Assembly: GCA_016748015.1 (NCBI GenBank)
Contig: JAAOMT010000480.1
Span: forward strand, 372,001 to 436,000
Source of the DNA: Geosiphon pyriformis uo1
Taxonomy: Eukaryota > Fungi > Glomeromycota
DNA: 64,000 nt
Direction of reading: 5' to 3'
Below are positions 5,654 through 43,773 of the stretch, piece by piece. The position numbers and the translations under genes were made by a program. The number at the start of each line of letters is the position of its first letter. Positions within the stretch are counted from its first letter, which is position 1. The notes under the pieces are model-generated. The model had not been told where the DNA came from. It did not search any database and saw only the letters and a list, made by a program, of their open reading frames with translations.

Positions 5654-11981
<6,328 letters not shown>

Positions 11982-12799: not shown

Positions 12800-13786
12800 T
12801 TTAAAATGTCACTTATAACTCTTATTGTAAAAATTTTAGTACTAAATTTCTTATAATATTAATTATACTAATAAAAACATAATTTCAATTATTAAACAAA
12901 GCAAACCCAATTGTTATTGGCTAGCATATGAAATAAGAATAAGATTAATTTTCGATTCAATTAAAAATTGTATAACATTTGATTATTTAATAAGATAACA
13001 ATTTTTAAAAAAGCTTTATTTACTTAAATTTGAATTTAAAAATTGTATGCTACAAGCTTTTTTACTTAAAAATTGCTTTTTAAAGTTATTACTTATATAT
13101 TAAATAAATAATATAATTTTTATTAAATTAAAAACTATTATTTAAAAAATTAAAAAATGTTGATTTTAACTTAATTAAAATAATACATTAATAAACTATA
13201 TTTATTTTCATAACATAAAATATTATTATTAAAAAAAAAGTAAAAACATGTTATTATTTAAAACATAATATTTAATAAATTATTTATTAAAATATAATTA
13301 AATTTTAATTATATGTAAAAATTTAATTCTAAACTTATAAAATTGTTAAATACAGCATATAAATCAAATTTAATCTAATAAAAAACAATAGTTTAATTAA
13401 TTATAATATTGTTATTACTATATTTAAGACAGTTTTTTTTTTTACCAGTTTTATTTTACCAATTTTAACAAAATAATTAATTTTAATTTAGTTATAAACA
13501 ATAATATTATTTTTAATTTATTTATTAATTAGATTTTTGATTTATTTATTTATTTTAAAAATATATAAACAAAAGTTTATAAATTATAAAAAAAATTAAA
13601 TATTTAAGTATTAGTAATTATTTTATTTTTATTTTTTAATTTATATTATTATTAATTTTTATAAAATACATTTTTTAAATAAATCTAAAAAACCTTTTTT
13701 TTTCTTTTATCTAAAATTTTTTTAAAAAGCAATATTTTGAAAAAAAGTTTTTTGTTTTTATTTTATTATATTTTTTACTATTTTAC
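12800..13786. other. Extremely AT-rich tract at the gene-island/TE-block boundary
   Basis: Almost no G/C, no ORFs. Confidence 0.7.
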
Positions 13787-15843: not shown

Positions 15844-18800
15844 ACAGTCTGGTTTGGAATATTGCAATGTGTAATGTTAGAGGAATGAACAATCCTGTGA
15901 AACAGGATGATATTATTTGTTGGCATAAAGAAATGAACAATGTGATTTTGATTGTTACTGAAACTAAGTTAAAAGGTAAGATCTGTCCTTGGATCATAAA
16001 CAAGTTTAATAGCATTCGGGTTTTTACTTCTGGTTTGAATTCTGGTCACTTGGATTCCAGGGTTGCGATCATTATGAACAATTTTTTGGCTCAGCATGTA
16101 TGCAAGGTTTTGAATATTCCTGACCAGTTTCTTTTTCTTAGGCTCCTTTTCAAAAATAACCTTTCTGTGTCAGTTTTGGGGCTGTATGCTGGAGCTTCTC
16201 TGGCAGTTTGTTTCTCTTAGGCAGATAATGTTAATTTTTTGATTGCAAGGGTGGTGAATGAGTCCTCTTTTGTCATCTTGGGTGGTGATTTCAATGAAGA
16301 TGATTCTTACAAAAGTGCAAGTTTCAAAAGATGTTTTGATTTAGGTTTGGTTAACTTCTTGGGTAAGAGCTTATATGGAAAAAAAGCTATGTGGAACAAT
16401 TCTCGAGGAATTGCCAAAACTATTGACTATATTTTTGTGTCATCGAATCTAGTTAATGTGATTTTAGATTGTAAAGTGGCTGGTATTGAGAAGTTTTTCA
16501 ATACTGATTATAAGGTTGTTTTTGTTTCTGTAGATCTTGGTGGTTTGCTGGATGTGCAATTAAACTTGTTGCGTAAACAGGCAAATAAGGATCATTGGAA
16601 GTATAATTTTAAAGATGCTAATGATGCTTTATAGTCAAAGTTTAAGGATAAAACGGTGGCTAATGCTACCATGTTCTTTGATGATTTCTTGAATACCAAA
16701 ATGTGTTCGGATTTGGATGCTATGTGGAATGCTGTTCATAAGACATTATGTTTTTCAGCAAATGTGGTTTTCAAAAAAAAATGGTTCAAAGAATATAATG
16801 GTGTTTTTATCAAAACCTTATCCAGATTTCATAGATTGGAGTTGCTGATGTCTAAATTGGTTAAAGCTTCCCAGTTGATCAATCGTGATGTATTCACTTC
16901 ACTGCTAAAAACTTGGATTCTGCTTGATTCTGCTAATGCTTTGTTGGTAAAGTCTCTTTTTTTTTTAGGTTCTTCTTTGAATGATATACGATCTGTTCTT
17001 TCAAAGATTAGGAAATTTTATCGTGCTTCTAAGTTGTTAGAGTCAAAATGTGCTGAGGATTCTTATATCAGGTCTGCTATCAATAGAAGGATGGAAAGCT
17101 TTAAGTCAGACAAAGATCACACTATTAGGAGTGTCTTGAAGCAGCCCTTTTGCAAAGTTATTTTAGATTATTTGGTGGTAAATGAGGAGCTGATCTTGGA
17201 GCCTAATCATGTTAAAAATAAAGTGGATGAGATAATAAAGGGTTGGACGTGGAAGTGAGGTGTGGTTCATGATGTGCCTGAGGATTGGTCTCATCAGTAT
17301 CAGCCTCTGGAACATGTTTTTGATGGCGCCTTTTCCAATGTTATGAACTGTATTAGTTTTGTTGAATTATTTGGTGTGGTTTCCAATCTGCCTGATAAGA
17401 AAGCTGCTGGTTTTTCAGGCATCTTCAACAAACTCTGGAAGCATTGTGACAGTTTGGCTCTTAATATGCTTTTGGTGCTCATCAATTTTTATCTTTCTGA
17501 TGGATTGATTTCTGGTGTTTAGAAGGAGGCTTGGGTTTCGATGATTCTTAAGCCTTATGAATAGGAAGGTGTGCTCACTAATACTCATCATATAGCTCTA
17601 ATTGAGACAGTTCGCAAGATTCTCTCCAAAATTCTTTCTGACAGGATTTCATTGGCATGCAGCAAATACAATGTTCTTTGTGGTGACAATTTTTCAGTTT
17701 AAAAGAGTACTATGACTTAGTTCCCTATTTTTGCGGTTGGTTCAATGATCGAGAACACTATAAAAAAAAACCAGAAGCTCTGGCTGGTTTTGCAGGACAT
17801 GCAAAAGACTTATGATTCTGTTGGTTGGGAACATCTCAGGAATAGTCTGGTTAGGATCAAAATGTATAGCAAGTTTATTTGATTTTTTGGTGGTATTTAT
17901 GGTGGTCATACCAACTGGGTTATGACTGATTTTGGATTAATGAGTGGTTATCATGTGCATGATGGCTTGAACCAAGAGGAAGTTTTCTCACTTCTCCTTT
18001 GACAGATATTTTATGATCCTCTTCTGTGCAAGGTTAAGAGACAGAAGAGTGTATGTAGGTATAGGTTGAATTCTCATTTTGTTTCTAGAACTGGTCATGT
18101 GGAATCTCAAGCTGAGTTAACTTCATTTCTTGCTGCTGGTGCTTTTATGGATGATACAATCTGGGTTGGTAATAGTTAGGCAGTAACACAGCACATTTTA
18201 GATATTGCTAGTGAATTTTTCAGGCTTAATGACATTTCAATTAACAATAATAAAACCATTGTCATTCCTATCAACTGCTGGATTGCAAATCTCTCTCTTT
18301 TGATAAGTGAAATGTCTATATCTGTGGCCAAAAAGGGGGAACCTCATTGGTATTTGGGTATCTTTTTGTCCACTGAGAGTCTTTTTAAACCCAGTCTTGC
18401 TAAAGCTTACTCGGACATCAAGTTTTTTGCTAATTTTGTGTTAAAAAAGACCATCTCTGATAAACAATTTTTGTATTTGGTGTCTTCAATCCTCCACCCT
18501 ATTGTGAATTACAGAACTCAGTTCAGTTTTGTTCCTCTTAGTGTGTGCAACAAATAGGATACTTTGATTCGCAAGGGTTTAAAATCAAAGTCTGGTTTGT
18601 CTTTGGATTTTCCCAATAATGCATTGTATTACTTCTCATTATATGGCTTGAATACTTTTGAACAAATCCAGGCTGAATACAAAGTAGTGTTTGTTGTTTG
18701 TTTTGCAAATTCGGTTGGCATTTTGGATTGTTTGTTTGCTCACAGATCTCATGACTTGCAAATTTTGTGTTGGCATCCGATTTATTCCTTGAGCTCTCCT

Positions 18801-21282: not shown

Positions 21283-23751
21283 CTACAAATCTATTTTAAT
21301 AGACACTATACTATTAATACCAGAAAAAAAACAGCAAGATTTATAGAAACCAAAGCTAATGCCAAATGTTTTAGAAATCCCAAGCAATCTAACAACCTTA
21401 TTAGAAAACAGAAATAACAGACCAAAAATCCTGGAAAACACTAATTTATCATGCATAATTAATTTTCTCTTCTTTATAAATACTTTATATTTAGCTCTAA
21501 CTAATTATATATCAGTATAATAAACCACTTCAAAGCCCCAAACAAAATCAATAACTCATTTACTGACAGCTTTAACATTATCAAAAACAAACACAGTTTC
21601 TAAAAACCAATAATTAAACAAAAAACCCTTATACAGAATGGTATATAAAACATTATCAGAAGCACATAAAAAAAGCATCTGTAAGATCCAAAAAGATGAC
21701 AAGCTTAAACTCAACAAAGCATATCATTAAGACAAATATAATGCAAGCAGATTCTCATGAATTCCAAAATCTATTACATATACAAAAAAATGATTGGAAC
21801 TCTCTACTTCTTCACAATAAAGACACAATACACTAGGATAATTTTTATAATATAATTGTTTCCAAAAAATAACTGACAGATAATAGTACAGAGCCTTTAT
21901 AAAATACAATCACAAACCAACTGTAGACTTACTTGTAAATTTAGCTGTTATATAATAATTGAAGTGCCAAACCAAAACAGTGTGAATCCAATTTACATTA
22001 CCAATCAAGCTTTTATCAATAATACCAAAACCAAGACCAATCTCTCAACAAGCATGATGAACAATCCTAAAAATCTTCTGAACAAAATAGTGAATATTTC
22101 CTGACACTATTATACTGCCAGTTTTAATAAATCTATTTTTGACCAGAACAGAAAGCATTAAATTTGAATTAGCAGTCAAGCCAGCCAGCTTATCAGCATG
22201 CTTATTTTCCAAAACATCTAAATAACTCTTAACCTTGTATTAAAAAATGCAAAGCCTCTTTTTTCTAATAGTTTCTACAATACTGCACTATTCCATCCAA
22301 CAGCAAGTGTGAAAATCTGGTAAAACCAAAACCAACTCTACAACACAAACATTCAAGGCAGCCTAATTGTTCAAGTACACTACAACTAAACTGCTAGAAA
22401 AAACACACTCCAAAGCCAGAACAATAGTCTGTAAATTTTACTATTATAAAGAGCACTAACTTATTGACCTTAATGCTAATATCCAAATCCAAATTAAAGA
22501 AATATGCAGTTCTCCTATATTCTATTTCACACATACCCAAGTTCTTTAAAGACCCATTCATGTACATACTAATGACACTCAAACTAGCATTAAAGAGACT
22601 TTGTAACAACTCAAAAAAATCATCAGAATTATAAACATCCAAAGACTAGGAGCTAATATTACATGACTTAGCAAAAAGTAAAGACTTAATCAAGAATTCA
22701 CATATCAGGTAAAACCAGTAAAAAACCAGATCTCTTGGATTAAGTTTTTTCCAATAGCAGAAATTCTTCCAATCAAAGATCAGTTCTTTTTTGTCATATA
22801 GTTGGTTAATGAAAGCAATTTCAAATCTTATAAATAAATGTAAAACATCATAAAACACAGAATTTTTTAGAACAAAAGACATCAGAGTGCTGCCAAAAAA
22901 ATAAAATGCAAAAAAATGAATATTGTCAAGAGATATATTACAATTCAAAAAAATTTTCACTATACTAATCAAAAAGTTATTAACCAGACTAATCTTTAAT
23001 TTCATAGATTAAAACAAAGAATAAATGAGAAACCAACTCAGAACCTGCAAATTTAAAAACTGATAATCAAACAACTAATCAAGAATTCTCTTAACATTTA
23101 AAAAAACTAATACTAAAGCCATTTTATTCTTAGCCTATAGCTGTTCAAATATTTTTAAGTCATACAATGAAGAATAGTAAAAAGTCTCATTAAGAAAGTC
23201 TCTTGACAGACCAGCTTTTAACTTTAAATCTTTCTTAATCAGTGTGTTCTACTTAATACACATATTTTTAGAAACAAAACTAAACTAAGTTCTGTAACTG
23301 ATTATAAATTGTAGTACAGCCAAAACCAAATAAAGAAACTATTTGTCTAAGATAGTTTTTCTTAAAATTAGATTAACAAAAAACCTAACATCTGAATGAG
23401 CTTTGGACAAACTAGGTTTGGATAAGCTCTCAGAAGACAAAAAAATACTAAGATATCTATAAGACTCCTTTCTATGAGCAATAGAAATTGGCAAATCACT
23501 TATTGACAATAAAACATTCTTAACTTTTTAGTTAATAGAGATGGCAACAGTCTTTTTATTATTAACTGAAATATTATTGACCATAAAAAAACTACTAGCA
23601 ATATTTAAAATATATTAAGTGGCTGCTTAACTATTCTCAATTCAAATTATGTCATCAATAAAAGCATCAGCTACAAGAAATAATAACAAACCACTTAGGT
23701 TCTTTAGTCTGCCAGTTTTGGCAACAAATTTAGTATCAATATAATAATCAT
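21283..23751 (-). pseudogene. LINE-b ORF2, 3' part (end of RT, RNase H, zinc finger)
   Basis: Fragments 'YMNGSLKNLG' and 'CLYCEEVESSNHFF' are homologous to LINE-a ORF2; stop TAG at 21283-21285. Confidence 0.85.
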
Positions 23752-24729
23752 TGTTACCAGAGGTTTTTGGTCTCTTCTTAGCTCTTGTATGTTTATTGTA
23801 ATGCTGTTAATTCACGACTATGGGAAGTGTTTAAACCTCTGATAACTGAATTTATCTTCAAATTATCTCTTATAATTTGAACTGTTGGGCTTATAAGTGG
23901 AATGGCCAGTTCTATGCCAGTTGCTTTGTGTAGTTATGTTGTAGTAAACATCAACTCTTTCCCAGGAATTGCTCATCTGAAAGCTCACTAAAAATGTGTA
24001 GTTACTTTGCTGTAAAAGTCAACTCTTCTACAGGAATCTTGTTTGTAGGCTACCCTAATGATTGTAATAAGAAAATAAAAAATAAATAAAAGAAATGTAA
24101 AAGAAATAAAATTTTATCAAGGAAAATGTTTTCTATCCAGACCTGGAGTCACTAACAGTTTACTGAAATTGGTAGCTAATCAATTTCAAAACGTTAGTTA
24201 GATTTTGGGGATTTTTCGAGTACAATAATTAAAGAATTTGGTTTTTCAAATTATTTGATATTTATTTTTTTTTTGTGTATAGGAATAGTTCTAAGTGATA
24301 AATCTAAAGTAAGATACATTTTTTCGAAGAGAGAAGTTCTTCTTTTATACAACTTGTCATAACACTATTCTATAAACTTGAACTTTGCTCTTTTCTACAA
24401 TTTTGCTGAACTAAAGATACATTTTGGCGAATTACAAGTTATTTCTGCAAACTATTAGATATTTCGGTGAATTATTAATTATTTCTGCAAATTTTTACAA
24501 ATTTCAGCAAACTTTTGAATGTTACATATTTCAGGGTATTGCATGATTGATCATTGCACTTAGGTTACATTTGTGTTATGTACAAATTGAGTTATTAATT
24601 AAATGATAATTTCGGACATTTTGCTAATATAATAAGTGATAATTTAAAACAATAATATATGCTAATTAATGATAAGATTTATAAGAGTAATTTTATGCTA
24701 AACAATATCTCTAATTTTGTCTGGTAACA
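23752..24729 (-). repeat. Gypsy-A 3' LTR
   Basis: TG...CA ends with 10-bp inverted termini; ~95% identical to 32571-33549 over the part compared; adjacent PPT. Confidence 0.95.
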
Positions 24730-25417
24730 TAACCTCCTCCTCAAGACTGAGCTCCATTGAAGTCCAAGTACTATCTGTAATTTCCAGATAATAATCTAAA
24801 ATTATTAAAGAAATTTGGTCTGAAAATTGTTAAAATTTCAGTTCTGTGAGCTTTCCAATGTATTGAATCTTTAAAGGCTGTAAAATTGGGTTTTGTAAGA
24901 CATTTTCACAGGTGTGGAATAGGTCATAAAGTCTAAGGGCAGCTCTTAGTTTATAACAACTGTTTGTAAGTCCAGCTGTTGTCTTGAATTTGTTGTAGAG
25001 TTGTTTCCGAATAGCTTCTTTTGTGAGATTTGCTGCTGTAAGCTCCCGTTTTTGTTTGTGAAGTGTTTTTCCAATGTAGAAATATCTATATATTAGAGTA
25101 TAATTGTAGTTTTCTTCATTAAGACACAGTTGAAGTTTTTGTTAAATAGTAGCATTTGGTGGAATACTAATAGGAATAAGCATTAAGTTTTCTCTTAAAG
25201 CAAGTTTTAAAAGTTCTGGCAGATGAATTTCAGAATAACTTCTTGTGTTCTTCTTATATGGGTGATATTTTCGTGAATTTGGGGCTAAATTTGTAACTAT
25301 TTCTGTTTGGGTATAATTAATGTGGTTTCCAGTAACAGTAATAGATAATTTGGGTATTGTTTTTAAAGTTAACATTAGTTTTTGGGATAATTGTTGAATG
25401 TTTTGAGGAATAGTCAT
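24698..25417 (-). pseudogene. Gypsy-A ORF3, ~240 codons, unknown function, ends inside the 3' LTR
   Basis: Single frame MTIPQNIQ...YRYFYIGKTL...AALRLYDLF...IQYIGKL...ELSLEEEVMLPDKIRDIV* with two internal TAA (likely CAA>TAA); homologue in Gypsy-B2. Confidence 0.75.
24730..24742 (-). other. Polypurine tract (GAGGAGGAGGTTA)
   Basis: Immediately upstream of the 3' LTR on the minus strand. Confidence 0.85.
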
Positions 25418-25533
25418 TATAAGAGATTTGAAAATAAAAGAAAATTATTTTTAGTGTATGGGTTTTTATGTTATTTTTGCTTTGTTTTTGTGAGATTGTT
25501 TCTAAATTATAAGGAGATAACTATAAATTTAAG

Positions 25534-26918
25534 TTAAGTGTTCAAGTTGGGAGGTTGTTCAATAACAACTATTGGTTTTAAATTTTGGGGAATATCTTTG
25601 AGATTGATTAAAGGGGAATGTGTACCAATTTGTGAAATTAATGGTTCAGGATTGTGTCTGAAATTATAGTGTTTCAAACAATCTCCATGTACAACTTTTG
25701 CTAGGATTTTGTTATCAAGTCTTAGCTTGTATGATCCATTGTCTAGGACTTCATGAATAAAGAATGGTCTATCCCATTTATTTTCAAATTTTCCACTCCA
25801 TTGTTTTTCAGCTTTAGTTCTGTGTAAGAGAACTTTGTTTCCGATTTTAAATTCATTGGTAACTGGAGGCAATTTGTTGTTATGCCATTCTTTTTATTGA
25901 GCTTGGGAGTGTTTAATATGAGTGGCTGCTATTCATTGTTTTCCTTCCAATGTGCTAAGCAGAGTATAGGCTCTTCGTTGTAGTGTTTCCTGAAAGTTGT
26001 CTTTATTAATTGGTTGTACTGGATATGTTTCTATTGTAAAACTAATTGGTAACATTGCTGTCCTTCCATAGGTTAAATCAAATGATATGTGTTTTGTGGT
26101 ATCTTGTTTTAGTGTTCTATATGCTAGTAACACTGATGGAATAAAGAGATCTTATTCTTGCTCAAAATTGGTTAAGACTTTGGCTAATAATTCACACAAT
26201 GTTCTGTTGAAACATTCTACAAGTCTATTTGTTTGTGGATGGTAGGATGAAGATAATAGTCTTTTGACATTAAATCGTCCACAAATTTCTTGGATTAAAT
26301 TGTTCACAAAATGTGTTCTTTAATCAGATAAAAGTTCTATTGGGCATCCATGTCTACAAATAATGTCTTCGTAGATAAAATTTGTTACTGATTTTGCATC
26401 TGCTCATTGAATGGCTCTGGCTTCAGGCCATTTGATGAGATAGTCTACAGCTACTGCAATATAATGGTTTCTTGGTTTGTGATAAGTAGTGGTCTGACTA
26501 AATTAATACCAATTCGGTCAAAAGCCTGTCCAACTTTGATTGGGTTTAAAGGTTCTGTAGGGCAAGTTTCTTTTCTTTTTTGACAACTATTACAAGACTT
26601 AACGTATTCATGAATGTCTTTTCTCATTTGAGGCCAAAAGTAATATTCTAGTGTTCTCTGAGTGGTGTTGTCTTTTCCTAGGTGTGCTGATGAAGGATCT
26701 GAGTACATGTTATATAAAATGGTTTCTTTTTTATGTTCTTGTATTAATCTGAGTGGATTGTCTGAGTTTCTGAAGTTTTGATAATAAACTATGTTGTTGT
26801 GTAAGAAGTATTGTTTGGCTTGTTATTGTAACTGATGTTTTTTATCTGAGGACCAATCTGTTGGAATTGTTAATGTCTCCAAATATTGTTTAAGATTGTT
26901 ATAGTTTTCGGGGTTCAT
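25534..26918 (-). pseudogene. Gypsy-A integrase, separate ORF (HHCC, DDE core, GPY/F; no chromodomain)
   Basis: ATG at 26918 (MNPENYNNLKQYL); HLG...WPQM...CNSCQ; YHPQTN; WD(G)PFFIHEVLDNGSYKL. Confidence 0.88.
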
Positions 26919-26964
26919 TGTTTGTTGTTTTGTTGTTAATTCAAATGGGTGTTGGTTTTGTATT

Positions 26965-29900
26965 CTAATTTTGCCTTATTTTTGAGAGACAATCAATGTT
27001 GGTATGGAGTTTTCCTGGTTTGTGATGTACAATATATCAGTAGTTGGCTAAAAATCCTGTCCATCGGGTTTGTTTGACATTCAGCTAAGTGTTTTTATTT
27101 TGAAGTCATTTGAGTCCAATATTATCAGTGATAATGTCAAATTCTTTAGGCCTGAGATAAAGGTTGAAGTGATGTAAAGCCCAAATTATGGCTGCTGTTT
27201 CTAGTTTTGTGGCAGGGTAGTTTTTCTTAGCTGGTTTTAATGTTCTGCTAGCATAAGCAATTACTCGCTCATTTTTGTTGTCATCTAATTGTGATAAGAT
27301 AGTACCAAAGACAGTGTAAAAAGCGTCTATAGCTAGTCAAAATCAGTTACTGAAGTCTGAATAGGCAAGAATTGAAGCTGTTGTCAGCTTTTCTTTGAGA
27401 ATTTCAAAAGCCTTTTGGTGTTCTTCCATCCATTTGTATTTGACGTTTTTAGTAGTGAGCTGGTTGAGGGGTTTTGCAATTTTTAAGAATTCTTTAATAA
27501 ATTTTCAGTAATAGGATGCTAATCCAATAAATCCTCTTAATTCTGTGGTATTTCATGGAGTCTTGAAGTTTTTGACAGTGCTGATTTTTCCGGGGTCTGG
27601 TTTAATTCCATCTTTGCTAACAATGTGACCAAAAAAGGCCAAACTTGTTTTTCCGAAGTAGTATTTTTCGATGTTTAGTTTCAATCCGGCTTTCCATAAT
27701 CATTAAAAAACTTTGCGCAGGTGTTTTAAGTGTAATTCAAAAGATGGTGAATAAACATCAGTATCATCGAGATAGACAACTACTGATTTCCAAAGAAGGT
27801 TTTTGTAAACAACATCCATAAGTTTTTGGAATGTTGCTGGTGTATTGCATAATCTAAAAGGCATTACATTGAACTCATAATTTCCTCCTTGAGTGGTGAA
27901 TGCTGTTTTGGGGTGATCTTTGGGATCCATGGCAACTTGCCAGTATCCACTCTCTAAATTTAATGTCGAAAAGTATTTGGACTTCCCAAAAGCATCTAGC
28001 ATGTTATCAATTCAGGGAAGAGAGTAGGCATCTCCAATGGTGATACTATTGAGTTGTCGATAATCAACACAAAATCATATCTTTTTATTTTTCTTTTTAA
28101 CTAAGACCACAGGTGAAGTCCATGAACTCATTGATGATTGAATAAGCCCATTGTTGAGCATCCGTTGTATTTCTTCATGGATAAATTGGTGACTTTCTGG
28201 AGTAACTTAGTAGACTTGCTGTCGCCTTAGTTTGACATCTTCTGTATAGATTTGGTGTTAAACCAAATCAGTTTTTCCTAAGTCATTGTTGTTTTCGGCA
28301 AAGATATCAGCAAATTCTGCAATTAGCTCTTTGAGCTGGTTCTGTTGTTGTGGTTCAAGTTGTCCCATGTTGATTCAAGATAGTTTTTCCATGACAACAT
28401 GGTAGTTTTCAGAGCTGGGGTTTGGGTTGATTTTTGGTAGTGAATGTCCAATGATTTCTGAGAAATTGGAAACTATTTGGGATAGTTCTTGTTGAAAGAT
28501 GTTACTGTGAATGACTCCAATTTTTAAGTTATTTAATAAAATTATGGGATAATTGTTGGGATTGTAAAAAGTAACTTAGACTTTCTTTGTTCCTTCTGGA
28601 ATATAAATGTTTGGGATCAAGATATTATGTTCCAAGCAGACTTGTTTATTGGACTCAAAAATTTGTTGTGTGGTTGTTGGCTTTTCACAAGTGTAAATTT
28701 CAGGGTATTCTCCAAAGGGTGAAATAGTAATTGGTTGTAGAAGTCATAGAATCTGGTGAGATTCACTTTGTTCATTAAGAACTATGTTTACTGGAACTGT
28801 GAATTGTTCAATTGAACCAAAACTATTGGTTTCTCTTCTACTTTTTTCCAATTGTTTTTTTTGACTGACTAATTGTAAACCCGAAATGTTGATTAAAGGT
28901 AAATAAATAGCTTAAGCAATTTTTTTAGCATGTTTAATCTGAAAAAGTTTATCAGTTTCATTTTGTAACATGATTGTAATATCTCTTGTATATTCAGCAT
29001 CTATGATTCCTCCTCTAACATTGATTCCTTTGCTTGCCAATGATGATCGTAAAGTGATTTGGACCATTGCTCTTGGTAAGATTTTGAGGGCAATTTTGAG
29101 ATTAATTTTGGTAAGAGAATTTGGTTGAAGAACCAAAGTGTCTTTTTCTGGATATCATAAATTGTATCCAGCATCAATTTCATGTGCTTTTTCTGGTTTT
29201 ATTCCTTGTCCATTGTTGTTGAAGTATTTGAGTTGTGAAGCAGGTTGATTTTCGATGAGGTAGATGGGTGTTGTTTCAATTTTTTCTGTTGCTTCAAATT
29301 CTCTGAATTCAATTTCGTATTCATCACTTTTGCTGGACAATGGAATGCTAAGAGTATAGCATTTAGGACACTATTGTTCGTCACATGGCATTATACACTC
29401 CTCACATAATTTAATGTTCATTTGCTCTAATCATTGAATTTGGGTAGATATGACTTGTGATTTGGTGATATACTTCTACTTTATTTTCATAATCAAATCC
29501 AGCTAATTTCAATGTATATTCAATATATTCAGCTTCTTTCATTTGAAGGACATCTTCTTTGGTTCCTCTGTTAATTAAAACCATGGCAAGTTCATAGATT
29601 ATTTTGGCGTCATGGGAGTAGTGATAGAGTTTGCTGAGGGTGCTGTTGTATGCAGCATTAAAAAGTATTCCACATTTTACTTTTTCTGCAATAGAAAAAG
29701 CATATTGACAAGTTTGATCGTAGACTCTTTCTCTAAATGCAACATCAATCCAGTCACATTCATTGGGAAGCTGCTTTCCACAAGTAAGACAGGATGTTCC
29801 ATCCCATTTTCTGCTTCTTTTGATCAAGTGGCCCTATCATTCTCGATAGCAGGCCTTGCAATAGTAGCAGGTGTGACTTTCATATTCTTTTTTAGATAAA

Positions 29901-32524
29901 ATACAAGCTCTTATTGACGATAATTTCTTGTGGCAGTTCTTATATTTAAGAGGAATATAAGGATGTTGTTTCCTTGGCTCAATCTTTGAGTAAGGTATAT
30001 TCCATTCAGGGGTTTTGGGTTCAGAGTGTAGGGTAAAATGTTCTTGTTCAATTTCATTGGCCCAATTGGACATTAACCCAAGAGCCATGAATGTTTCGAT
30101 TATTGGTTTTTCTTCTTCTGGTTCGAATTCAAAAGCCAGGGCTTTTTCGGAGCGTTTGTTGAATATACCACAAGTGGCAGGTACTCGGACATGTTGTCCT
30201 TGGTAAGAGATTTGTAGTTTTTGGGTTTCCCAATCTAATTTTGCATTGGTTTTTTAAAGCCAGTCATTTTTAACAAAAGCTTGATACTAAGGAGCGTCCA
30301 TTACAAGAACTTTGACTGGAATGGTGATTCCATCAAGAGTGAATAGAAAATTGTCAATTTCTCTTACTGGAGTCTTTTTCATGCCATCAGCAGTGACAAT
30401 TACTGTTTGAGCTGGTCAGTCAACATTTTTTTTTAACTGTTGCATCAACTGGTAAGTAATAATACTTCCAGTAGATCCATTGTCTAGGATTAAGCAAATT
30501 GTTTTTTCTTCAACTTCAGCTTCAGTATACATAGCTGTGATTGTTTTCTGTTCATTTGCAGCAGCATTGCTGAGTAGAAATGGTGATTCATTGGCTTTGA
30601 ACTCGAAAGGAAAGATATCAGACAGATTGGCATTTTCAGCAATTCTGGCTGGTGGAATAATGGTGTGGTTATAAAAAGAATTTTGTTGTTGTGCTGTAGC
30701 TCTACCTTTCGAGAGTGCAGTATGGTGAAAATTCTGTTCTTCTGACATTGTTAAATAATTGGGTTGAGTGTAATAGTGGTTGGGTCTTAGTTGAGTGGGA
30801 TTTTGGAAAACCAATTGGTTGTTTGAACTGATTCTATTGTTGTTTACTTGGTATCAGTTTTGTGGTGTAAATTGATTTTGGGTAATCAATCTTCAAGCAG
30901 GTACTTGATAATGTTGTGTGGGTGGTTGTTGGTATTGCTGTTGGATTGGCTGTGGGGTGGGCTGATAATAATTATTTTAGTATTGGGGTCTTGGTGGATA
31001 GTAAGCCGGTGGTAGTGGTGGTTGGTAATAAGATTGTTGTGGCGAAGGGTAATGTTGATTATTCCTGTTTTGTTGGTCTCATTGTAGCTTTCTGCAATCT
31101 CTTTTCCAGTGGCCAGGGATTCCACAGTAATGGCAATTCTAAGGCTAGTTATTAGAAAGTGGTGCAAAGTTATTTTGATTTTGTCTTTGGGGTGGTTGAT
31201 ATCTTTGGGGTTGCTGTTGTTGTTGTTGGTTGGTGAAATAGTTTTCAACTTTCTTGGTTAATTGGTCAATTTTTTCTTCAGCTGCTGAGCTGGTTTCTCC
31301 AATAGCCAGATTAACAAGTTTGGTACGGTTGGCTTTTTTCATGGCCATTTCATAGTTTTTTGCCTGTTGAATAGCAGTAGCTAAATCTTCTGGTGCATGT
31401 GGGCAAACTTTCTTAATAAGTTTGTCTTTTAGTCCAGCAATAAATTGATCCAAGATTTGTGCATTGGAGTAGTATTCATTGGTTTCTAATTGCCAAATTC
31501 TTCTAAGCAGTTTGTTGAATTTCCCAAGATAAGTCATAACTGATTTACTTGGTTCTTGCTTGATATTTCAGAACTGATTTTGAAGGGTGATAGAAGTGTT
31601 ATTGTCAGTGAACTGTTCTAGAAAAGCAGTTTTGAATGCTTCCCAGTGTTCTGGTGAGGCTTCCAAGTTTTCAAATCATTCACCAGCTGTTCCTTGTAAG
31701 AAGTATGGAATTGCTTTTAACATTCTGGCAGCATTCCAACCATTTGCATCTCCTGCTTTTGAGATTTTGTCAAGCCATTTTTGAGGACTGGTTTCACTGT
31801 CTTCTCCTGTGAACTTAGGGATTTTTGTGATATATGTGGAGGCTATTTCTTTTTCATTTTCTGAGTCTTCTGTTTTTTGTTCTGATTTGGTCTCTTCACT
31901 TCAATTTTTTGCTAAGTAGTCAATAAGGTTTGTGCTGGTTAATATTGGTTTTTTTTGTTGAATAGGGCTTTTGGGTAACTGAAAATCTTTTATTCTTGAA
32001 AACCGAATAAGTGGTGAGCTTGGTGTTTGTAGTTGAGCAAGTGAAGCTAGAAATGGTGTGATTAAGAGTGGTAATTTAAAGCTGGTTCCTTGTTCTGAAG
32101 TTTGTAAATATTTGGCAGTGGTTTTAGGTGTATTGGGAGTAGTTCTGAGTTTTTGTTTTCTTTTTCATTTTCTTTTTTCTGTTTCCGATTCAAAACTAAG
32201 AGAAAATTTCTGTTCTACTGGATAATTCTCTTTACAATACTGAATGATATTGAAATTGAGTTCTTGGAAATATGTTTCAAGTGTTTAATTGTTAAAATCC
32301 TAAGTGTTTAGATGAGAGTGATGTACTAAGCTTTCATATAAGTTGTGTCTAACTTCTGAAATGTTGTAGTCTCTAAAAAGATAATTGTTGATGTGATTTT
32401 CAATGTACTGGTAAAGTGTTTTCTTAAATGTTTCAATTCTGTCTGGAATGTTAAATCTCTGCTTGCAGTGGGTGTAGATTGACTGATAATACTCTAGAGT
32501 TCTTGAATCTGTTTAAGTTGCCAC
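26965..32524 (-). pseudogene. Gypsy-A Gag-protease-Cys-rich-dUTPase-RT-RNase H polyprotein
   Basis: GTG at 32524; CHYCGIPGHWKRDC; LILDNGS; dUTPase motifs; TAFTT...VVYLDD; RNase H ending DCLSKIRQN* (TAG 26965-26967). Gag to protease is one frame. Confidence 0.88.
28810..29220 (-). pseudogene. dUTPase domain in Gypsy-A pol
   Basis: DAGYNL, RSSLA, GGIIDAEYT, KIA(Q), FGS motifs 1-5. Confidence 0.88.
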
Positions 32525-32556
32525 TTTTGAAGTTGTTGTTACTGTGTTATTTTTGT

Positions 32557-32568
32557 GGGAGAGCACCA
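32557..32568 (-). other. Primer-binding site TGGTGCTCTCCC
   Basis: Starts with TGG, 2 nt after the 5' LTR end. Confidence 0.8.
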
Positions 32569-32570
32569 AA

Positions 32571-33549
32571 TGTTACCAGAGGTTTTTGGTCTTTTCTTAG
32601 CTCTTGTATGTTTATTGTAATGCTGTTAATTCATGACTATGGGAAGTGTTTAAACCTCTGATAACTGAATTTATCTTCAAATTATCTCCTATAATTTGAA
32701 CTGCTGGGCTTATAAGTAGAATGGCCAGTTCTGTGCCAGTTGTTTTGTGTAGTTACGTTGTAGTAAACGTCAACTCTTTCCCAGAAATTGCTCGTTTGGA
32801 AGCTCACTAAAAATGTGTAGTTACTTTGCTGTAAAAGTCAACTCTTCTACAGAAATCTTGTCTGTAGGCTACCCTAATGATTGTAATAAGAAAAGAAAAG
32901 AAAAATAAAAGAAATGTAAAAGATATAGGATTTTATCAAGGGAAATGTTTTCTATCCAGGCCTGGAGTCACTAACAGTTTACTGAAATTGGTAGCTAATC
33001 AATTTCAAAACGTTAGTTGGGTTTTGGGGATTTTTTGAGTGCAATAATTAAAGAATTTGGTTTTTCAAATTATTTGATATTTATTTCTTTTTGTGTATGT
33101 AGGAATAGTTCTAAGTGATAAATCTAAAGTAAGATACATTTTCTCAAAAAGAGAAGCTTTTCTTTTATATAACTTGTCATAACACTATTCTATGAACTTG
33201 AACTTTGCTTTTTTCTACAATTTTGCTGAACTAAAGATACATTTCGGCAAATTACAAGTTATTTCTGCAAACTATTAGATATTTCGGTGAATTATCAATT
33301 ATTTTGGCAAATTTCTACAAATTTCGGTGAACTTTTGAATATTACATATTTCAGGGTATTGCATGATTGATCATTGCACTTAGGTTATATTTGTGTTATG
33401 TACAAATTGAATTATTAATTAAATGATAATTTCGGACATTTTGCTAATGTAATAAGTAATAATTTGAAACAATAATATATGCTAATTAATGATAAGATTT
33501 ATAAGGGTAATTTTATACTAAACAATATCTCTAATTTTGTCTGGTAACA
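32571..33549 (-). repeat. Gypsy-A 5' LTR
   Basis: Direct repeat of 23752-24729; followed on the minus strand by the PBS. Confidence 0.95.
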
Positions 33550-35774
33550 CCATACAAGCTCTTCTACTGTTTAATTTTGTATAATAGAAGGTCATAAAAA
33601 TTTTTTCAAAGCAGAGAAAAGAAAACCTTACTCTGGTTCAAACTATCATGTACTTGATACTTATTTGTCAAGCCATAATTAATTATGATCCAATTGATTC
33701 TATTATTGTAAATGCTTCCAAAAAACCAGATAAACTGTTCATATATTTTGATTCAAATTAAACTGTTTCTCAAATAATACTATCTCAAAGAGTTATAAGT
33801 CTTCTACATGTTTGTAAGACCAACCAAAGTTTACAGTCTTTTTCCAAAGCATTTTTAACTACAGAGTTAATGGCAAAGATAAAAAATTGAGTAGTAGTTC
33901 TTTTTAGCACAGAAAAATTGTCATCACAAAAAACATCAAAATTACTACAGACCAAAGAAATTTTATCAGAAAGTAACTTAGAAAGAATTTTACAAGTAGT
34001 CTCAATTAGTGCAATTGGTTTAGTATTAATTAAAACTCCCTTCCACTTATATGGTTTAATAATCATTAACATTCAAGCTTCTCTCTATGGTTGAGACATA
34101 AATTTACATTTCAAATAAAAATTTAAAAGATTCAAAAGCATAATAAGTACTGAATTATTATAATGTTTCCAAAGCTCATTTGTGATATTAGACAAATCTG
34201 CAGTTTTTTTATCAAGCAGGTTCTTGACCATATGCACTAAACCATTATAACTGATAGCAAACATAACACCAAAAAAAGCATTATCATCAACATAAGCCAA
34301 TGGCAGGTATTAACACTGTCACAAATTAGGAATACTGTCTAACATAACTCTTTTTTTTGTTTAACTCTTCATAATTAAATCAATCTTACTTTTGACATCA
34401 ACTGAATCCAGAATCAATTCATCTTCAGAAACCAAATAATCTAATACTACCTTATAAAAAAAATGCTTCAATATACCTAGATAATATGGCTTTTATTATT
34501 TGTAAAACTTTTCATCCATTTATTAATAGCAGATCTAATGCTTAGCTCCTTAGCTCTTAATAACTCAGCAAGTTTGGATGCATAATATGACTTCTTTATG
34601 TTAAACAGAGCAAAATACACATAAACAAAATTAGCACCAGAACTCATAAGATTCTGAATGATCAACATCTTGTTACTGTTCAAAAAAATCTAAAGAAATC
34701 CAAAAGTTCATCAGAAAAACAAACCTATCAACACAATTTTTATAAAAAACCTTTACAATCCTTGAAACCAAAATTTTCAATTTATGAAACTTAAAAGATT
34801 CCTTAGTGAAAACACTATCAAAGTTTCTAAATTATTTTTTCTTGAATGTTCTATTAGCTAAAAAAATCACAATCTTGCAAATAGTATTCTATATTGCATC
34901 CAGATTTGAAAACTTCTTAAAAGTAGCAAATTTATTAGAGAACATTATAGTATTGGCTGCCATAGCATCCTTAAAAAAGTTTTATTTTACTTTATTAATA
35001 TCTTTAATATTAAACTTCTAATAATTTTTATTAGTTATTTGTGCACAAAGTTTAACTGTACATCTAACAAGCCTCTCAAGCCCACAGAAACAGAAACAGC
35101 TTGGTAATTAATATTAAAATATTTTCCAACATCTATTATGTTATGATCTACCATCACATTAACCAAGTTCAAAAAAATAAAGGCATAATCAATTATTTTT
35201 GTGATACTTCTCAAATTCTTCTATGTTAATGTGTTTGCAGCTGCACTTTCAACCAGCAAATTAACCAATCCCAAACTGAGACACTTTTTAAAACTGGCAC
35301 TTTTGCAAAATTCGTTTTTATTGAAATTTTTACTCAAAATTAAAAAAGAAGACTTATTAACAGTCTTTGCAATCAAAAAGTTAATATCATCTACCTAAGA
35401 AAACTGAGCCAACAACAAAACACCAGTATACAACCCCAAAATCAAGACAAAAAATTTATTCTTGAAATGCAACTTGACAGGCAACAGCCAGCCAGGAATC
35501 TCTAAAATCTTACATATATGTCTTGCTAAGACAATGTCTATAATGATCATAACACCAAAACCCAAATAACTGGAATCCATACCAGAAGTAAATACTTGAA
35601 CACTATCAAATTTGTTTTTAATTCATGGATGAATCTTCTTTTTAACTTGGTCTTGATAACAACAGAAATTAAATTATTCATATCTTTGTGACAACAAATA
35701 ATATCTTTCTGCTTGGCAAAATTGTTCATCTCTCTAATATTGCATATAATAATCTTTTATACTAAGTTATTTAT
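33550..35774 (-). pseudogene. LINE-b ORF2, 5' part (APE + first half of RT)
   Basis: '(M)NNLV(W)KI', 'KQKDIICCHKDMNN', 'KPIALIETTCKILSK' are homologous to LINE-a. Confidence 0.85.
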
Positions 35775-37789: not shown

Positions 37790-39748
37790 TTGAATACCAA
37801 AAAATTAATATAAAACTTTATTATTTACTTTGCTTATAAATATTATTTTAAAATTTTTTTAAATAAAACTAATAAAAAACATATATTATTAATTTTATAT
37901 TAACTATAAAGTAAAATATTATTATAAAAATGTTTTTTTGGTATATTAATTATTATTACTTTCAGTTTAATTCTAATTAGTCTTTTGTAAATTTTTTAAT
38001 TTTGGTTATATTATTATTATTATTATTATAAAATTTTTTATTAATATTGTAATGTAAACTTTTTTTAAATTTTAATTATTATTGTATATTTTATGTGTTT
38101 TTTTTAAAAACTAATTTAAAATTTATATATTATTATTAAGATTTTTTTAAAACTATTTTTACAATTACTTGAAGTATTTTTTTAAAAATTTAGTTAATAA
38201 ATAATAGTTTTATTTAATAGATAAATACAAATAATTTTTTTTAATAAATTTATAATAATAATTTAGTTTTTAATATTATTTTTTAATTGTAATAATATAT
38301 AATAATTTGTTATAAAATTAAATTAAGCTTTTTATACTATTTTAATTTTTTAATAATATTAATTTTTTATAAACTAAATTAGATTTAATTTGTTGTAAAA
38401 ATTGTAAATAATTGGTTATTTTAAATTAAAATATAATTTTTTTAAAAGTTTTTTAAGAAGTTTTATAAATATTTACTTTTAAAATTAATTATTTGTATTT
38501 AATTACTTTATATGTTAAAAAAATATTTTTATTAAGTGTTTAATTATTTTTAAAGATAAATTTTGAACTTAAATTATGTTTTTAATAGTATTTTAAATAA
38601 AAATAAACAATTAAACTTTATTTAAATTGCAAATTTTTTTTTATTTGTTTTTTTTGATGGTTTTAAAATTAAATATAATAAAATATAACTTAAAACTTTT
38701 TTTTAATTAAGTTAATTTAATATTTTTAAAATTAAATATATATTTTTTTTTACAGTTTTTTCTTATTTTTCTACTTTTTTTTAGTTTTAATTTTTGGTTT
38801 TAATATAATTTTAAATACCTTTTTTAAAAAAATTGTTAATATACTGCTTGTAAACTTTGCTATTTTTTCTTTGATTGTTTTTAAATTGGGTTTTTTTGAA
38901 GTTAAATTGTCTAAACTTTTAGTTTTTTAACAATATAATATTAAAACTTGGTAAATTGTTTTCTAAAAACAAACTATATGTATTTACTTCTTAATAACTA
39001 ATTTAATTTAAAATATTGCTATGTATAATATAAAAAAAATAATCTTATTAAACAAAAATATATTATAAAATAGCACAAAAATATAAACAATCTGGTTTTT
39101 ATTGTTATTAAAATAAAATTAAAAAATAAAATTAGATTTTAAATCAAAAACAAATTTATTGATAAAAAAGTTTTTACTTTTAGAATTTTAATTATTTAAA
39201 TTTTAATATCATAATTATTATAAATAATAATTTAATTTATTATATTTATAAAATATTTTACAATTAAATTTCTATTTAAAAACAAACTTTTTGTTTTAAT
39301 TTTGAAGTTTTATATTAATATTTTATTAATAATATATTTGATTTAAGCTAAAAAAATTAATTTATAAATTAATTTTTTTTTGTAATTTTAAATAATAATT
39401 TTAATAAAAATTGTTTTAAAAAGTGTACTAATTTCAAAAAAAACTTGAATTTTGGTTTGATTAAATTTTTAATTAGTTTTATGATTAAAATAATTATCTA
39501 ATTTAATTTATAAAAGATTAAATTATATTTTTATTTTGTTTTTACTTATTAATATTAATTACAAATTGTTTTAATTTTGGTTGGTTTAAGTGGTTTTTTA
39601 AATAAATAAATAAATATTTTATAAAAACAAATAAATAAAAATACAATTTTAAGAATATTAATAATACCAAATAAAATTTTAATTATTTATTAAATGTTTA
39701 ATAAGTGAAGCCTAACTGCTATCTAATACATAAAACCAAATTAAGTGG
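37790..39748. other. ~2-kb extremely AT-rich tract, probably terminally eroded repeat DNA
   Basis: Nearly devoid of G/C; no ORFs; lies between TEs. Confidence 0.65.
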
Positions 39749-40608
39749 TATTACTTATAGAAAAAAACATACAAAAAAATAATAGAAAAAACAGATAAAC
39801 CAATAAGAAAATAGTAGCTAATACATAAGCATATTGCTTAGCAATGTAGAGTATTGTCAAAAATTATAGCACATTGCTCAACAATATGAAACAATATTAA
39901 AAAATTATGATACATTGCTCAGCAATGTGAGTATTGCTTAAGAAATTATAATACATTGTTCGAGAATGTGAGTGATTTCATAAAACTCAAATTATGTATA
40001 TATAGCAAGAGTATTAAAAGCAAAAAAAACAAAATTAATACCAAGATCTCCTGGTTAAAACATCTTAGTTAAAATCATCAATATTAATAAATAATTATTT
40101 ACTATCTAAATTACTCTTCTTATTATCAACACTTTATGTTGATAGTATTTAATACTTGATCACACTAAAACAATAGCTCTTGATTATGACTATTGACAGA
40201 ATACTAATTTTTTTTTGTCTTGGCTTATTTCTTTATTTTTTATTTTTTATTTTATTTTATTTTCTTTTGTTTTGTTATTATCTACTAATTGATTAAAAAT
40301 TAAACACATGGAGTTATCAATATTAAAGTGACTAATAAAAGACTCAGAAATAAGGGTAGAACACTCAAAAATTGAGAATAGCTTACCAAAAAAATTACTG
40401 GCCATTACACTAAGAAAGAAATTTAACAAAATTGCAATTCCAAAAAGTGACAAATAAAACAACATTTGAATTTCTGTCTATTATACAAAAAACTCAACCA
40501 AAGTCTTCAGATTACAAAACCTTCAGATAATACCAATCATATCAGCTATTAAGCACCAAGTTACAGATTTGTTATTTGATTAGAGACTCCAAATAATTAC
40601 TTGTAACA
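39749..40608 (+). repeat. Gypsy-B1 5' LTR
   Basis: T(G>A)TTACTTATAG...TGTAACA; inverted homologue at 44119-44947. Confidence 0.85.
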
Positions 40609-43600
40609 TTTGGTGCTTTCTGTAAGGTATAATCCAACAAAAAACCAGCACCAACAGCAACTATTTGAAACAGTGACAGAATTAGAAGAAATAAAGACAA
40701 ACTACTTGGAATTTGCAAAATCTTTATTCCAGTATTACAAAGAGCATCTTGGATTGACAAATAATAATTGGCCAGCAGAATTAGCTTTTAATTGTTATGT
40801 TAATAAAAGAATTGTGTATTATTTGGAAAATCAAGGAGATTTAGAATCTGCCTTCAACAATTTCTTTAGTAAACTACTCCAAAACATCACACTGCTACAG
40901 AATTATTTATTTGCACCACTAATTACAAAAATAAACAGAGAAATTGAAAAATACACTAAACAAAAATTCTCCGTTACTTTTGCTAACAAAAAAAAAGGAA
41001 GATTGCAAACACCAGCAGAAATCCCAAAGCAAATACAATTATCTACTTAGAAGAAACAAAGAGTTAATTTATCTGCTAATCCATTATATTATTACATACT
41101 TGAAAGCATTATTAATATAACATCAATAGACATATTCACAGCAAATGTAACAACACCACTAAACAGAAGAAAACAGAGTTATTAGGAACATATGACAATT
41201 ATTTTGAGAGATTTAAATCATGATCCTCAATGCCATCAGAAGTTTGATTACCACCAGCACAACCAAATTTTGAAGCCACTAATTTTTGGAAAATAACCAA
41301 CTCTGAGGAAGAGGAAGATAGCAATCAGAAAATTAATAATTAAAATCCAATTTCAAAAAACCCAGAAATACAAACCATAATTGTTCTAACTTTGTGAAAT
41401 TAGAACAATCTAAACACTGCTTCTATTATTCCCCAAAACTTAACTTCAGTAATCATAATCAATCTACCACCAGTTCCACCAATCACTGAACAGCAACAAC
41501 AACAACCACCACTACCAGCTTAGCAACAACCTTAACAACAACCACAACCATAACAATAACTATTACTATTAGTACTAATGACTTATAATTCAATTGCCAA
41601 ACTTGAAAAATTTACTGGCAAAGAAGATGATATCCAAGTATGGCTCAATGATGTGAAAAAAGTCATTGCAGCCAATAAATAGAATGATACTAAAGCATTG
41701 CAAGCCATTTCATATTTTTTTTAAGATATTATTGACTTGTGATATCAAAGCTTGGCCAATAAACCCCAAGATTTTAACATGTTTAAACTGGAATTTTTAA
41801 GATACTTTAGTAACAATAACAGCATTAACCACTTAGCCAATACTTTTATTATTATTAAACAAGAAGATATTAAAGCCATCACCACCTATCTGAGATGCTT
41901 TCACCAAACTTTGTGCCAAAACCAAGCAATTAACACAGCCTACTTCACAGAACTGCAGATTCTGAACCAGTTTATTCGTGGTCTACACAGTAGCATTCTA
42001 CAATGCATATGTCCATTACATCCAAGCAATCTTTAAGTCACTATTACTCATGCCAAAGACTTTAAATCAACTGAATTCGAAGCCAACCATGTCCAAGCTA
42101 TAAATCTAGTGATGAATAAATCATCTGAATTGGATTTCAAATTAAAACAGTTTAATAATTTAATCAACCAGAAATTAGAAGGATACTTAGTTAACAATTA
42201 GGCCATTTATCAACCTTGACAATAATGCAATAATCAAAGAAACTCAAATTGTTTCCAAAATCAGTTGTGTTTTTTATTGTCAACCAATTAATCATGACAG
42301 CCAGAAATGCATATCTGCCACAATTGTGGTAAACAAGATTATATCAAAATTAACTGCCATTATAATGATAACTCATAATCAAAAAATCAATATTGAAATC
42401 CTGATTGCCAGTTTTAAACTCTGAACTATTCTCCAAATCAAGATCAATATCAATTCTATTACTTATAAATAACACAACAACCAATATACTTACCTTTAGT
42501 ATATTAAACTCCAGCACTTGTAATATATTAACCATAGTCACAAATCATCTATTAATCTCAACAACTTCAAATGCCACCACTAATTCCAGCTCAGATGACA
42601 CCTGGAAACCAATAGCCAAAAATAACCCAAAACTGGAGATCAGCAATGGTTGTTTATTAGCTGATTTCAAGCTCCTCAAACCAACTATCAGAATCACACC
42701 AGCATAATTCAAGAACTGGATACACCCAAAATCTGAATTCTCAGAACTATTTAAGTCTCCTAATTAACTCAAAAGATGTCTTATCCAACAAACCAAAGTT
42801 CAACTAAAAGCAGTCACTTACTAACAACATTTTATTAGCAACTGTTACTAACAATAACTTATTAGCCACTATTTTTTTCTTTAAATTCAAAGAACTGACA
42901 GTAAAACTCTTATTTAGTAGAACTGCCCTAAATACAAAGCCTATCACAACAATGTATATAGATGTCAAAGTTGATGGCCATCTTATCAAACTAATTTTAA
43001 ACAATAACTCGGCAAGCAACATTATTACACATCAATTTATAGACCAATTAGGCTACTAAGTTGATTATGCTGTCAACACCAGAATAATAACTGCTGATAA
43101 AGCAACAAAAACCCCAATTGGCAAGATTGATAACTTCCTATTTGAAATCAACAATATTACCACTGCAATCAAAATATTAGTAATAGAAGCCACCCAATAC
43201 CAAGCTCTCATTGGTAATGACTGGCTGTCCAAAACCAATGCCATGTTCAATTAAAACACTCAAAAACTTCAATTAACATTCAATAATCAATATATTTAAG
43301 TACCAGCAATTTGTGGTCATTTCAAGACTACCATCATACCAGTATCATTAATAGAATTCGAGAAAAAAGAGAAAAAACCTATTTGGAAAGCCTACCAAGT
43401 CTTGTGGGCTAACACTGACCACAATAAATTATCATTAATACTTTTTTGGAATGATAAAAAAAAAGAAAAAGAAGAAGACAAATTACAAAAAGATATTACC
43501 ACCAGTAAAATTACTAGTGATTGAGAAAAATCATATTTGACTAACACCAAACCAGAGCCACCATATATTTTATTTAAGTGCAAGGACTGTAAGAAAAAGC

Positions 43601-43773
43601 TGTCTTCTATGGAAGTCTGGATTGTATCTGACAAAAATTACTGGACATATATACACTATTACTACAAGCCATGCCATTATAAATGCTATGACTACTCAAA
43701 AAAACAAAGAAAATATGACAACAAATTATGTTTCACTTATGAGAAAACTCTACTTGATAAAAAAATGTGAAAT

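Follow-up and report, generated by a model that had tools for sequence, protein, structure and literature searches.

Described Ty3/gypsy (Metaviridae) long terminal repeat (LTR) retrotransposons carry either one gag-pol open reading frame (ORF) or a gag and a pol that contains the integrase (PMC12440569, PMC2864245, PMC3248453; these and the later citations refer to the accessible parts of the papers). The integrase lies 'generally' within Pol, and target-site duplications (TSDs) measure 4-6 bp (PMC12440569). A dUTPase between protease (PR) and reverse transcriptase (RT) is found in non-chromovirus Gypsy elements (Ylt1-like) of fungi with one or two ORFs (PMC2864245), and both dUTPase and third ORFs (ORF3s) that do not encode Env are known from LTR elements, the ORF3s typically being expressed from spliced messages (PMC5408684). 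Because the integrase (IN) of described LTR elements, as far as these sources go, is part of Pol, it enters the particle by fusion to Gag, and a large, intact lineage that breaks this rule must make, dose and deliver its integrase otherwise. We analysed a 64-kb stretch of DNA (positions 372,001 to 436,000 of contig JAAOMT010000480.1; hereafter the window), for which an earlier note had proposed a new LTR-retrotransposon lineage with a stand-alone integrase. A decayed Ty3/gypsy-type LTR retrotransposon copy, element A, occupies 23752-33549 on the minus strand. It belongs to a real and widespread lineage of this type with a free-standing integrase gene, apparently undescribed in the searchable literature. 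We give a probability of about 0.8 to the reading that Pol in this lineage ends after RNase H (RH) and that the integrase, encoded in a separate frame, is likely translated from its own AUG and not cut from a polyprotein.

The gene order of element A is Gag, PR, a Cys-rich block, dUTPase, RT and RH, a stop, 46 nt, and then an ATG-initiated integrase and ORF3. RT and RH (26965-28149, minus strand, as are all element A features) are terminated by TAG at 26967-26965, an A/C-rich spacer occupies the 46 nt up to the integrase ATG (26919-26964), and the stand-alone integrase ORF (25534-26918) opens with the ATG at 26918 in a frame different from that of RNase H. With stops read as X, Pfam matches occur in the order Retrotrans_gag, zf-CCHC, Asp_protease_2, dUTPase, RVT_1, RT_RNaseH, Integrase_H2C2, rve and a weak SH3. 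The integrase has a YPYY-like N-terminus, an HHCC motif, a DDE core and a decayed GPY/F region, with a frameshift near 26470, and the best PDB match of the integrase profile is Ty3 Gag-Pol (E 1.7e-47). Element A thus has the marks of Ty3/gypsy, including LTRs with TG..CA ends, a primer-binding site (PBS), a polypurine tract (PPT), a TSD within 4-6 bp, an RVT_1-type RT, the order PR-RT-RH-IN after Gag and a GPY/F integrase. In these features it resembles the non-chromovirus lineages (Ylt1-like, SN_1006), whose HHCC-DDE-GPY/F integrases also lack a chromodomain; no chromodomain match was found in the element A integrase (Pfam), in the proteins P0002 and P0102, or among the domains precomputed for the 120 best matches, in agreement with the earlier note. 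It is unlike Ty3/gypsy in that its integrase lies outside Pol.

Element A is too decayed for the split to be proven from the window alone, and relatives were needed. Of the 2,504 codons that were examined, 44 (1.8%) are internal stops, there are frameshifts at about 29440 and 26470, and at this stop density a stop falls by chance in the 17-codon junction about 1 time in 4. Two further window copies retain an integrase. In C2 (plus strand) a stop, TAA at 63091-63093, stands at the position of the element A Pol stop, and the integrase ATG (63154) follows 60 nt on and in frame; in C1 (minus strand) the stop position is the same and ATA stands where the integrase start is expected. The C2 integrase matches 724 proteins of 155-494 aa, and of the 120 best matches all but two (118) have an N-terminal Met. 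Fifty-four of the 120 were aligned, and the alignment served as the query in a search for metagenome loci; 575 stretches were confirmed, and the analysis covers the best 80 of them.

An RNase H match lies upstream of the integrase in 48 of the 80 loci (32 have none), and in all 48 a Pol stop precedes the integrase. A continuous gag-pol-int frame, named beforehand as the outcome that would speak against the proposal, was found in 0/48. The distance from Pol stop to integrase ranges from -35 to +1026 nt, frames 0, 1 and 2 are used 13, 17 and 18 times, and an ATG stands at the expected place in 47/48. Decay has hardly touched these loci, whose RT-RH regions have 6 stops in 14,953 codons (49 best HSPs), and the integrase core is stop-free in 67/80. 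An ordinary gag-pol-int element split by decay or misassembly might be suspected from the stops and two other frameshifts of element A and from the in-frame junction of C2. However, 48/48 nearly intact relatives are split, their spacers vary and the Met is conserved; the split is therefore not a product of decay. For sequencing run X1, no majority indel is listed in the element A spacer, and one 2-nt insertion has about 11% of depth. We conclude that this explanation is refuted for the lineage and leave it only a very small chance overall. Run X1 is possibly the source sample; 17,124 of its contigs align to 25560-28400, indicating a high-copy family, and the element A Pol stop is not among the 40 listed of its 447 substitutions, so that the run does not decide the junction. 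The claims of the earlier note that the integrase stands alone after a Pol stop and that decay is unlikely to explain this are thus upheld, by the 48 relatives and by 3/3 integrase-bearing window copies. Its statement that the layout recurs in four window relatives holds for C1 and C2, but B1 and B2 are truncated and no integrase was seen in either.

The split elements form one lineage in both trees, as had been supposed. In the RT-RH tree, 33 split rows (window copies included) are separated from 49 fused relatives by one branch with SH-aLRT 98; the rows are gypsy-like and mostly unnamed, 19 near-identical rows were dropped, and the tree is unrooted. In the integrase tree, which is unrooted and without named references, one branch with SH-aLRT 95 separates 86 split rows from 64 others. 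All named close relatives are from arbuscular mycorrhizal fungi, namely Rhizophagus, with Entrophospora among the cluster members, and long gene models come from Rhizophagus and Cetraspora. Given these named relatives and an adjoining fungal-type host gene in the window, the host of the lineage is likely a Glomeromycotina fungus. In the viral contig collection there was no relative by C2 protein, and an alignment search gave three weak integrase-like matches.

Transposable elements of arbuscular mycorrhizal fungi are treated at superfamily level in the sources available (PMC11952901, bioRxiv 10.1101/2021.03.30.436303). Our literature search, with Repbase, GyDB and supplements outside its scope, returned no description of a separately encoded LTR-element integrase or of this layout in mycorrhizal fungi; the other papers compared were PMC5911963, PMC12863088, PMC13465315 and PMC6839031. 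Annotations of mycorrhizal fungi enter the split integrases as 'DDE-type integrase/transposase' genes or join them through predicted introns. Surveys that use the rve domain as a marker of Ginger elements, as described in PMC5751038, could count them as DNA transposons.

The start contexts make it highly probable that the integrase is initiated at its own AUG. Among 69 loci, a purine occupies -3 in 62 and G occupies +4 in 64, and an ATG within 60 nt upstream of the start is present in 18, against 42.4 +/- 3.6 in 1,000 base shuffles. Since strong contexts and scarce upstream ATGs favour scanning or re-initiation, we lean towards a ribosome that would reach this AUG by one of these routes, either on genomic RNA, once translation of Pol has ended, or on a shorter, internally started RNA. 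Frameshifting or readthrough between RH and IN is disfavoured because frames and spacer lengths are random. The RH-IN junction, with no fixed frame or context, contrasts with a single in-frame TGA-CTA in the PR-RT gap of 8/8 members of one subclade (L052, L056, L060, L071, L072, L074, L075 and L076; for example L056:2882-2887). We take this stop between PR and RT to be a readthrough-type context. Coupling through an overlapping stop and AUG could serve some members, given that 7/48 junctions overlap or lie within 18 nt, but as a mechanism for the whole lineage it is doubtful, as the other 41 have spacers of 24-1026 nt and those of element A and C2 measure 46 and 60 nt.

We identified a covarying RNA structure of ~38 nt upstream of the integrase, on the sense strand and once per locus, that ends about 0-32 nt before the AUG. 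It is present in 27/80 metagenome loci, plus 2 weak cases, nearly all of one subclade (L017, L018, L019, L020, L023-L025, L027-L029, L031, L032, L035-L037, L039, L041, L043-L047, L051, L053, L054, L057 and L059; for example L018:4464-4501). Compensatory changes occur in 8/13 pairs, and 5 members were found by the model from outside the model. Searches of 11 loci against the Rfam covariance models, self-cleaving ribozymes and IRES among them, gave 0 matches at E <= 1, a result that a divergent member of a known family could also give. The motif had no match in the viral contig collection and is absent from the window, and thus is not the mechanism of element A. A search also returned 52 prokaryote matches to the motif pattern, which we rejected as apparent coding sequence without stems; none scores above 24 bits, whereas true members score 48-75. 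Subclades of the lineage appear to use different signals, namely stop-start overlaps, A/C-rich spacers and structured RNA. In one subclade, grouped by eye, the spacers are richer in a Myb-like AACGG than the integrase is (15 in 1,170 nt, compared with 15 in 16,062 nt), which we regard as no more than a lead.

Several points weigh against the reading we prefer. The window copies are poor witnesses, since element A is too decayed to decide the split alone and C2 has an in-frame junction whose TAA codons may each be a decayed CAA. All proteins in the query alignment were stand-alone integrases, the analysis is confined to the best 80 of the 575 stretches, and the metagenome loci carry no host name. 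GTA (17) and TAG (24) are as rare as ATG upstream of the start, which shows that the shuffle control is crude, and the G at +4 may reflect an Asp or Glu second residue. Finally, four fused RT/Gag-IN proteins exist at 48-51% identity, all of them eukaryotic gene models, with scores of 262-312 bits (the next fused match scores 209 bits). Two of these (P0121 and P0122) are missing the end of RH and the beginning of IN, a gap of the kind that a predicted intron would leave, and one of the four joins Gag to a partial Pol; P0124, in which the RH end is retained, is an unexplained case.

These fused models also bear on the alternative that the integrase comes from a spliced subgenomic mRNA, as for env or ORF3, or that splicing re-fuses RH and IN. 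The spliced ORF3 messages typical of LTR elements (PMC5408684) offer a precedent, a branch-point-like TTGATTTAAC occurs in some spacers, and CAG closes the RNA motif in 20/22 rows. In the other 2/22 rows, though, this CAG has become CGG with a compensatory change, an AG upstream of the AUG is neither fixed nor depleted (260 seen, 264 expected) and none lies within 60 nt in 14/69 loci, and P0121 and P0122 have lost the RH end motif at their joins. We therefore consider splicing unlikely, and splicing would be compatible with own-AUG translation if the resulting mRNA kept the integrase AUG as its start.

If the general LTR cycle applies, Gag-Pol, putatively begun at GTG in the sub-lineage of the window, would build the particle and carry out reverse transcription, during which the dUTPase would limit uracil incorporation. 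The free integrase would then have to join the cDNA, perhaps through contact with RNA, with Gag or with the ends of the cDNA, before insertion with 4-bp duplications. In foamy viruses (Spumaretrovirinae), an enzyme made apart from Gag needs separate packaging. There the whole Pol, integrase included, is separate from Gag, whereas in the split lineage the integrase alone is split off and no Env is present.

The nearest rows to the split integrases in the integrase tree are RT-less proteins, P0127 (with Ulp1), P0196 (with OTU), P0170 (an OTU-like start, judged by eye) and P0212 (no protease domain). Their architecture is that of Ginger1 as defined by Bao, Kapitonov and Jurka in 2010 (PMC2836005), and we call them Ginger1-like from domains only. 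In a 59-row mixture-model tree, 20 split integrases group with the four Ginger1-like proteins and two long-branch rows with support 100/99, and support is 97 with five rows dropped (four long, one partial) on a 240-column core. One of the long-branch rows, P0137, has a chromodomain and is apparently a fused element, which weakens the grouping. These trees are unrooted and their outgroups are word-sharing matches, without Athila/Tat, Cer1, DGLT-A or Gypsy-1_RO, which have been placed near Ginger1 (PMC2836005). Across the DDE core, Ginger1-like proteins average 41-46% identity to split integrases and 35-40% to others; as split integrases reach 56.5% to their best fused counterpart, identity alone does not support the link.

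Split elements and Ginger1 share a free-standing integrase of ~400 aa with YPYY (judged by eye against PMC2836005), HHCC, DDE and GPY/F, as well as TGTNR ends (TGTTA in the split element) and a 4-bp TSD (PMC2836005). Unlike Ginger1, the split element has LTRs, Gag and RT, has no terminal inverted repeats of 40-270 bp, is not flanked by CCGG or CCGT, and has no Ulp1 or OTU tail (absent in P0002, P0102 and the element A integrase). Bao et al. (2010, PMC2836005) found no Gypsy lineage clustered with Ginger1 and regarded it as unclear how an LTR element would become a DNA transposon; the split lineage is a concrete candidate for that path. We tentatively suggest, as a possibility that falls short of an even chance, that it is the missing link that connects LTR retrotransposons to the Ginger1 DNA transposons, from which vertebrate GIN1 and GIN2 derive, and is sister to the Ginger1 transposases. 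If so, loss of gag-pol, or the reverse, capture of a transposase, would be a single step, and one subclade would drive its integrase by a new structured RNA element.

The same grouping with RT-less integrases that carry Ulp1 or OTU could instead mean that an LTR element which had lost its own integrase captured a Ginger-type DNA transposon, or the transposase gene of one, as its integrase ORF, and the AUG at the YPYY-like motif, the TGTTA ends and the 4-bp TSDs would fit such an origin as well (PMC2836005). An inserted transposon does not account for an integrase that always follows RH in the same orientation, is succeeded by ORF3 or by PPT and LTR, and has no protease tail. As to an ancient capture, the RT and integrase trees show no clear conflict and, being unrooted, give no direction. 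We regard capture as improbable.

The accompanying genes of the lineage are modular. It is the split integrase that defines the lineage, ORF3 is accessory, and dUTPase, Cys block and GTG start mark the sub-lineage of the window. The earlier note had treated its five features as one package, which they do not form, as dUTPase, Cys block and GTG were found only in window copies and one subclade has no ORF3. dUTPase is present in A, C1 and C2, and the Cys block of element A matches those of C2 (E 4e-10) and B1 (E 1e-7), while both were found in 0/80 metagenome loci, 17 of which span PR to RT. GTG in an A-at-minus-3 context, in frame after the PBS, occurs in A, C2 and B1; the GTA that stands there in B2 is as expected from G-to-A decay. 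Most relatives start Gag with ATG, and the Gag N-termini of L013, L039, L018, L020, L031, L049 and L072 have the ATG, a His/CxxC motif and then FWxW, not seen in A. In the placement of dUTPase between PR and RT, the window copies resemble dUTPase-bearing gypsy elements of Postia, Phanerochaete, Tuber, bdelloid rotifers and planarians (PMC2864245, PMC6431247, PMC5408684), and the rotifer elements also have non-Env ORF3s (PMC5408684). They differ in that the integrase of those elements is described in pol, that ORF3 of the split lineage has no Pfam family and is not GDSL, DEDDy or Env, and that dUTPase is confined to one sub-lineage. The combination is apparently undescribed in the searchable literature, as the earlier note had supposed, but dUTPase between PR and RT and fungal Gypsy lineages outside the chromoviruses (PMC2864245), non-Env ORF3s (PMC5408684) and 4-6 bp TSDs (PMC12440569) are individually known.

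Besides an RNA motif without an Rfam match, the lineage yields an ORF3 family of 609 clusters at 50% identity with no known fold. Its members have about 140-230 aa and are predicted to form a compact, all-helical fold of eight helices (pLDDT 97). Foldseek gave no match at E <= 0.001 in PDB or BFVD; the best VIA match has Z 4.5 (rmsd 3.3, 70 aligned), and the best Atlas match scores 0.85, to unnamed clusters. Closter_coat and Translat_reg (Atlas 0.81) were considered as ORF3 folds and rejected as chance-level matches. None of 137 ORF3 members has an Env Pfam match, and the membrane-glycoprotein ORF3 of errantiviruses and env-bearing gypsy elements was accordingly not found. In element A, ORF3 (24698-25417) has no Pfam family and extends 32 nt into the 3' LTR, confirming the third, non-Env ORF that had been described there; it is a divergent member of the family (31% identity to L014, profile iE 1e-6). 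In C1, decay is too advanced for ORF3 to be confirmed (profile iE 0.8-1.3). As a feature of the lineage, ORF3 stands only in part, with homologues in 31/43 metagenome loci that have at least 600 nt after the integrase but none in the six TGA-CTA-subclade members with enough downstream DNA, five of which have PPT and LTR 25-51 nt after the integrase. ORF3 is therefore accessory, as a subclade with the split integrase lacks it. In the 11/14 loci where a PPT was called, ORF3 ends near the PPT/LTR junction, at -46 to +45 nt. Elsewhere the ORF3 slot holds a NUDIX hydrolase (E 1.6e-10), a helix-turn-helix (HTH) protein or, at two loci, a Cys-rich protein (loci with other genes in the slot are L040:1945-2886, L013:6546-6941, L030:2258-2701 and L080:6219-6611). 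Pol itself runs 219-343 aa past RNase H in L018, L021, L023, L028, L031, L039, L049 and L054 (for example L039:4354-5163), where an acidic tract precedes a Cys/His-rich C-terminal domain with no Pfam match in the three tested.

The 5' LTR of element A (32571-33549) has TG..CA ends with a 10-bp terminal inverted repeat, and the 3' LTR lies at 23752-24729; the flanks are TCAT (23748-23751) and CCAT (33550-33553). A PBS-like TGGTGCTCTCC, starting with TGG, lies 2 nt inside the 5' LTR (32558-32568). Downstream are a decayed Gag (30900-32524) with a putative GTG start at 32524, its capsid (Retrotrans_gag, about 31714-31427) and CCHC knuckle (about 31138-31088), and the aspartic protease in the frame of Gag (30150-30547; Asp_protease_2, E 1.5e-6). 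The Cys-rich block (29221-29977), of no Pfam family, has a frameshift near 29440 and is followed by the dUTPase (28813-29196; Pfam E 3.4e-15). The PPT (24733-24742) is inside ORF3, 3 nt before the 3' LTR. As stated in the earlier note, TSDs are of 4 bp; they flank 3/3 family-A insertions, TCAT/CCAT (one mismatch) at element A and CTGA/CTGA and CCAT/CCAT at two solo LTRs, one in the RT of C1 (48142-49091, minus strand) and one in the gag of C2 (56408-57370, plus strand); a 5-bp extension was seen in none of the three.

The two LTRs of element A are 94.3% identical and differ by 49 transitions and 4 transversions, with C contexts CT 17, CA 15, CG 9 and CC 8. CpG observed/expected is 0.22 in element A and 0.93 in window positions 1-12000. 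These values suggest methylation-linked or RIP-like decay that extends beyond CpG sites. Of the window relatives, C1 (44118-52937, minus strand, approximate bounds) is heavily decayed and retains gag, PR, dUTPase, RT-RH, the stop, IN and 3' LTR. C2 (55010-64000, plus strand), cut by the window end, has LTR, PBS, GTG, gag, PR, Cys block, dUTPase, RT-RH and IN. B1 (about 39749-44039, plus strand) comprises LTR, PBS, GTG, gag, PR, Cys block and an RH fragment, and B2 (about 52938-55009, plus strand) only LTR, PBS and the 5' part of gag.

The host genes beside the elements are a Mit1/CHD-type SNF2 remodeller with PHD and chromodomains (Chromo_MIT1; 5654-11990, minus strand) and an ARID-domain gene (1529-4409, minus strand). 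AT-rich tracts with a GC content of 0.10-0.14, palindromic or repetitive, occupy 13054-13750 and 38028-39574. On either side of element A, 15867-18699 is matched by inverted copies at 33551-35747 and 23101-23681 with 66-67% identity, and because of these copies it is likely that the element landed in an older copy of a repeat or gene. The segment 16635-17258 has a weak match to EOS1.

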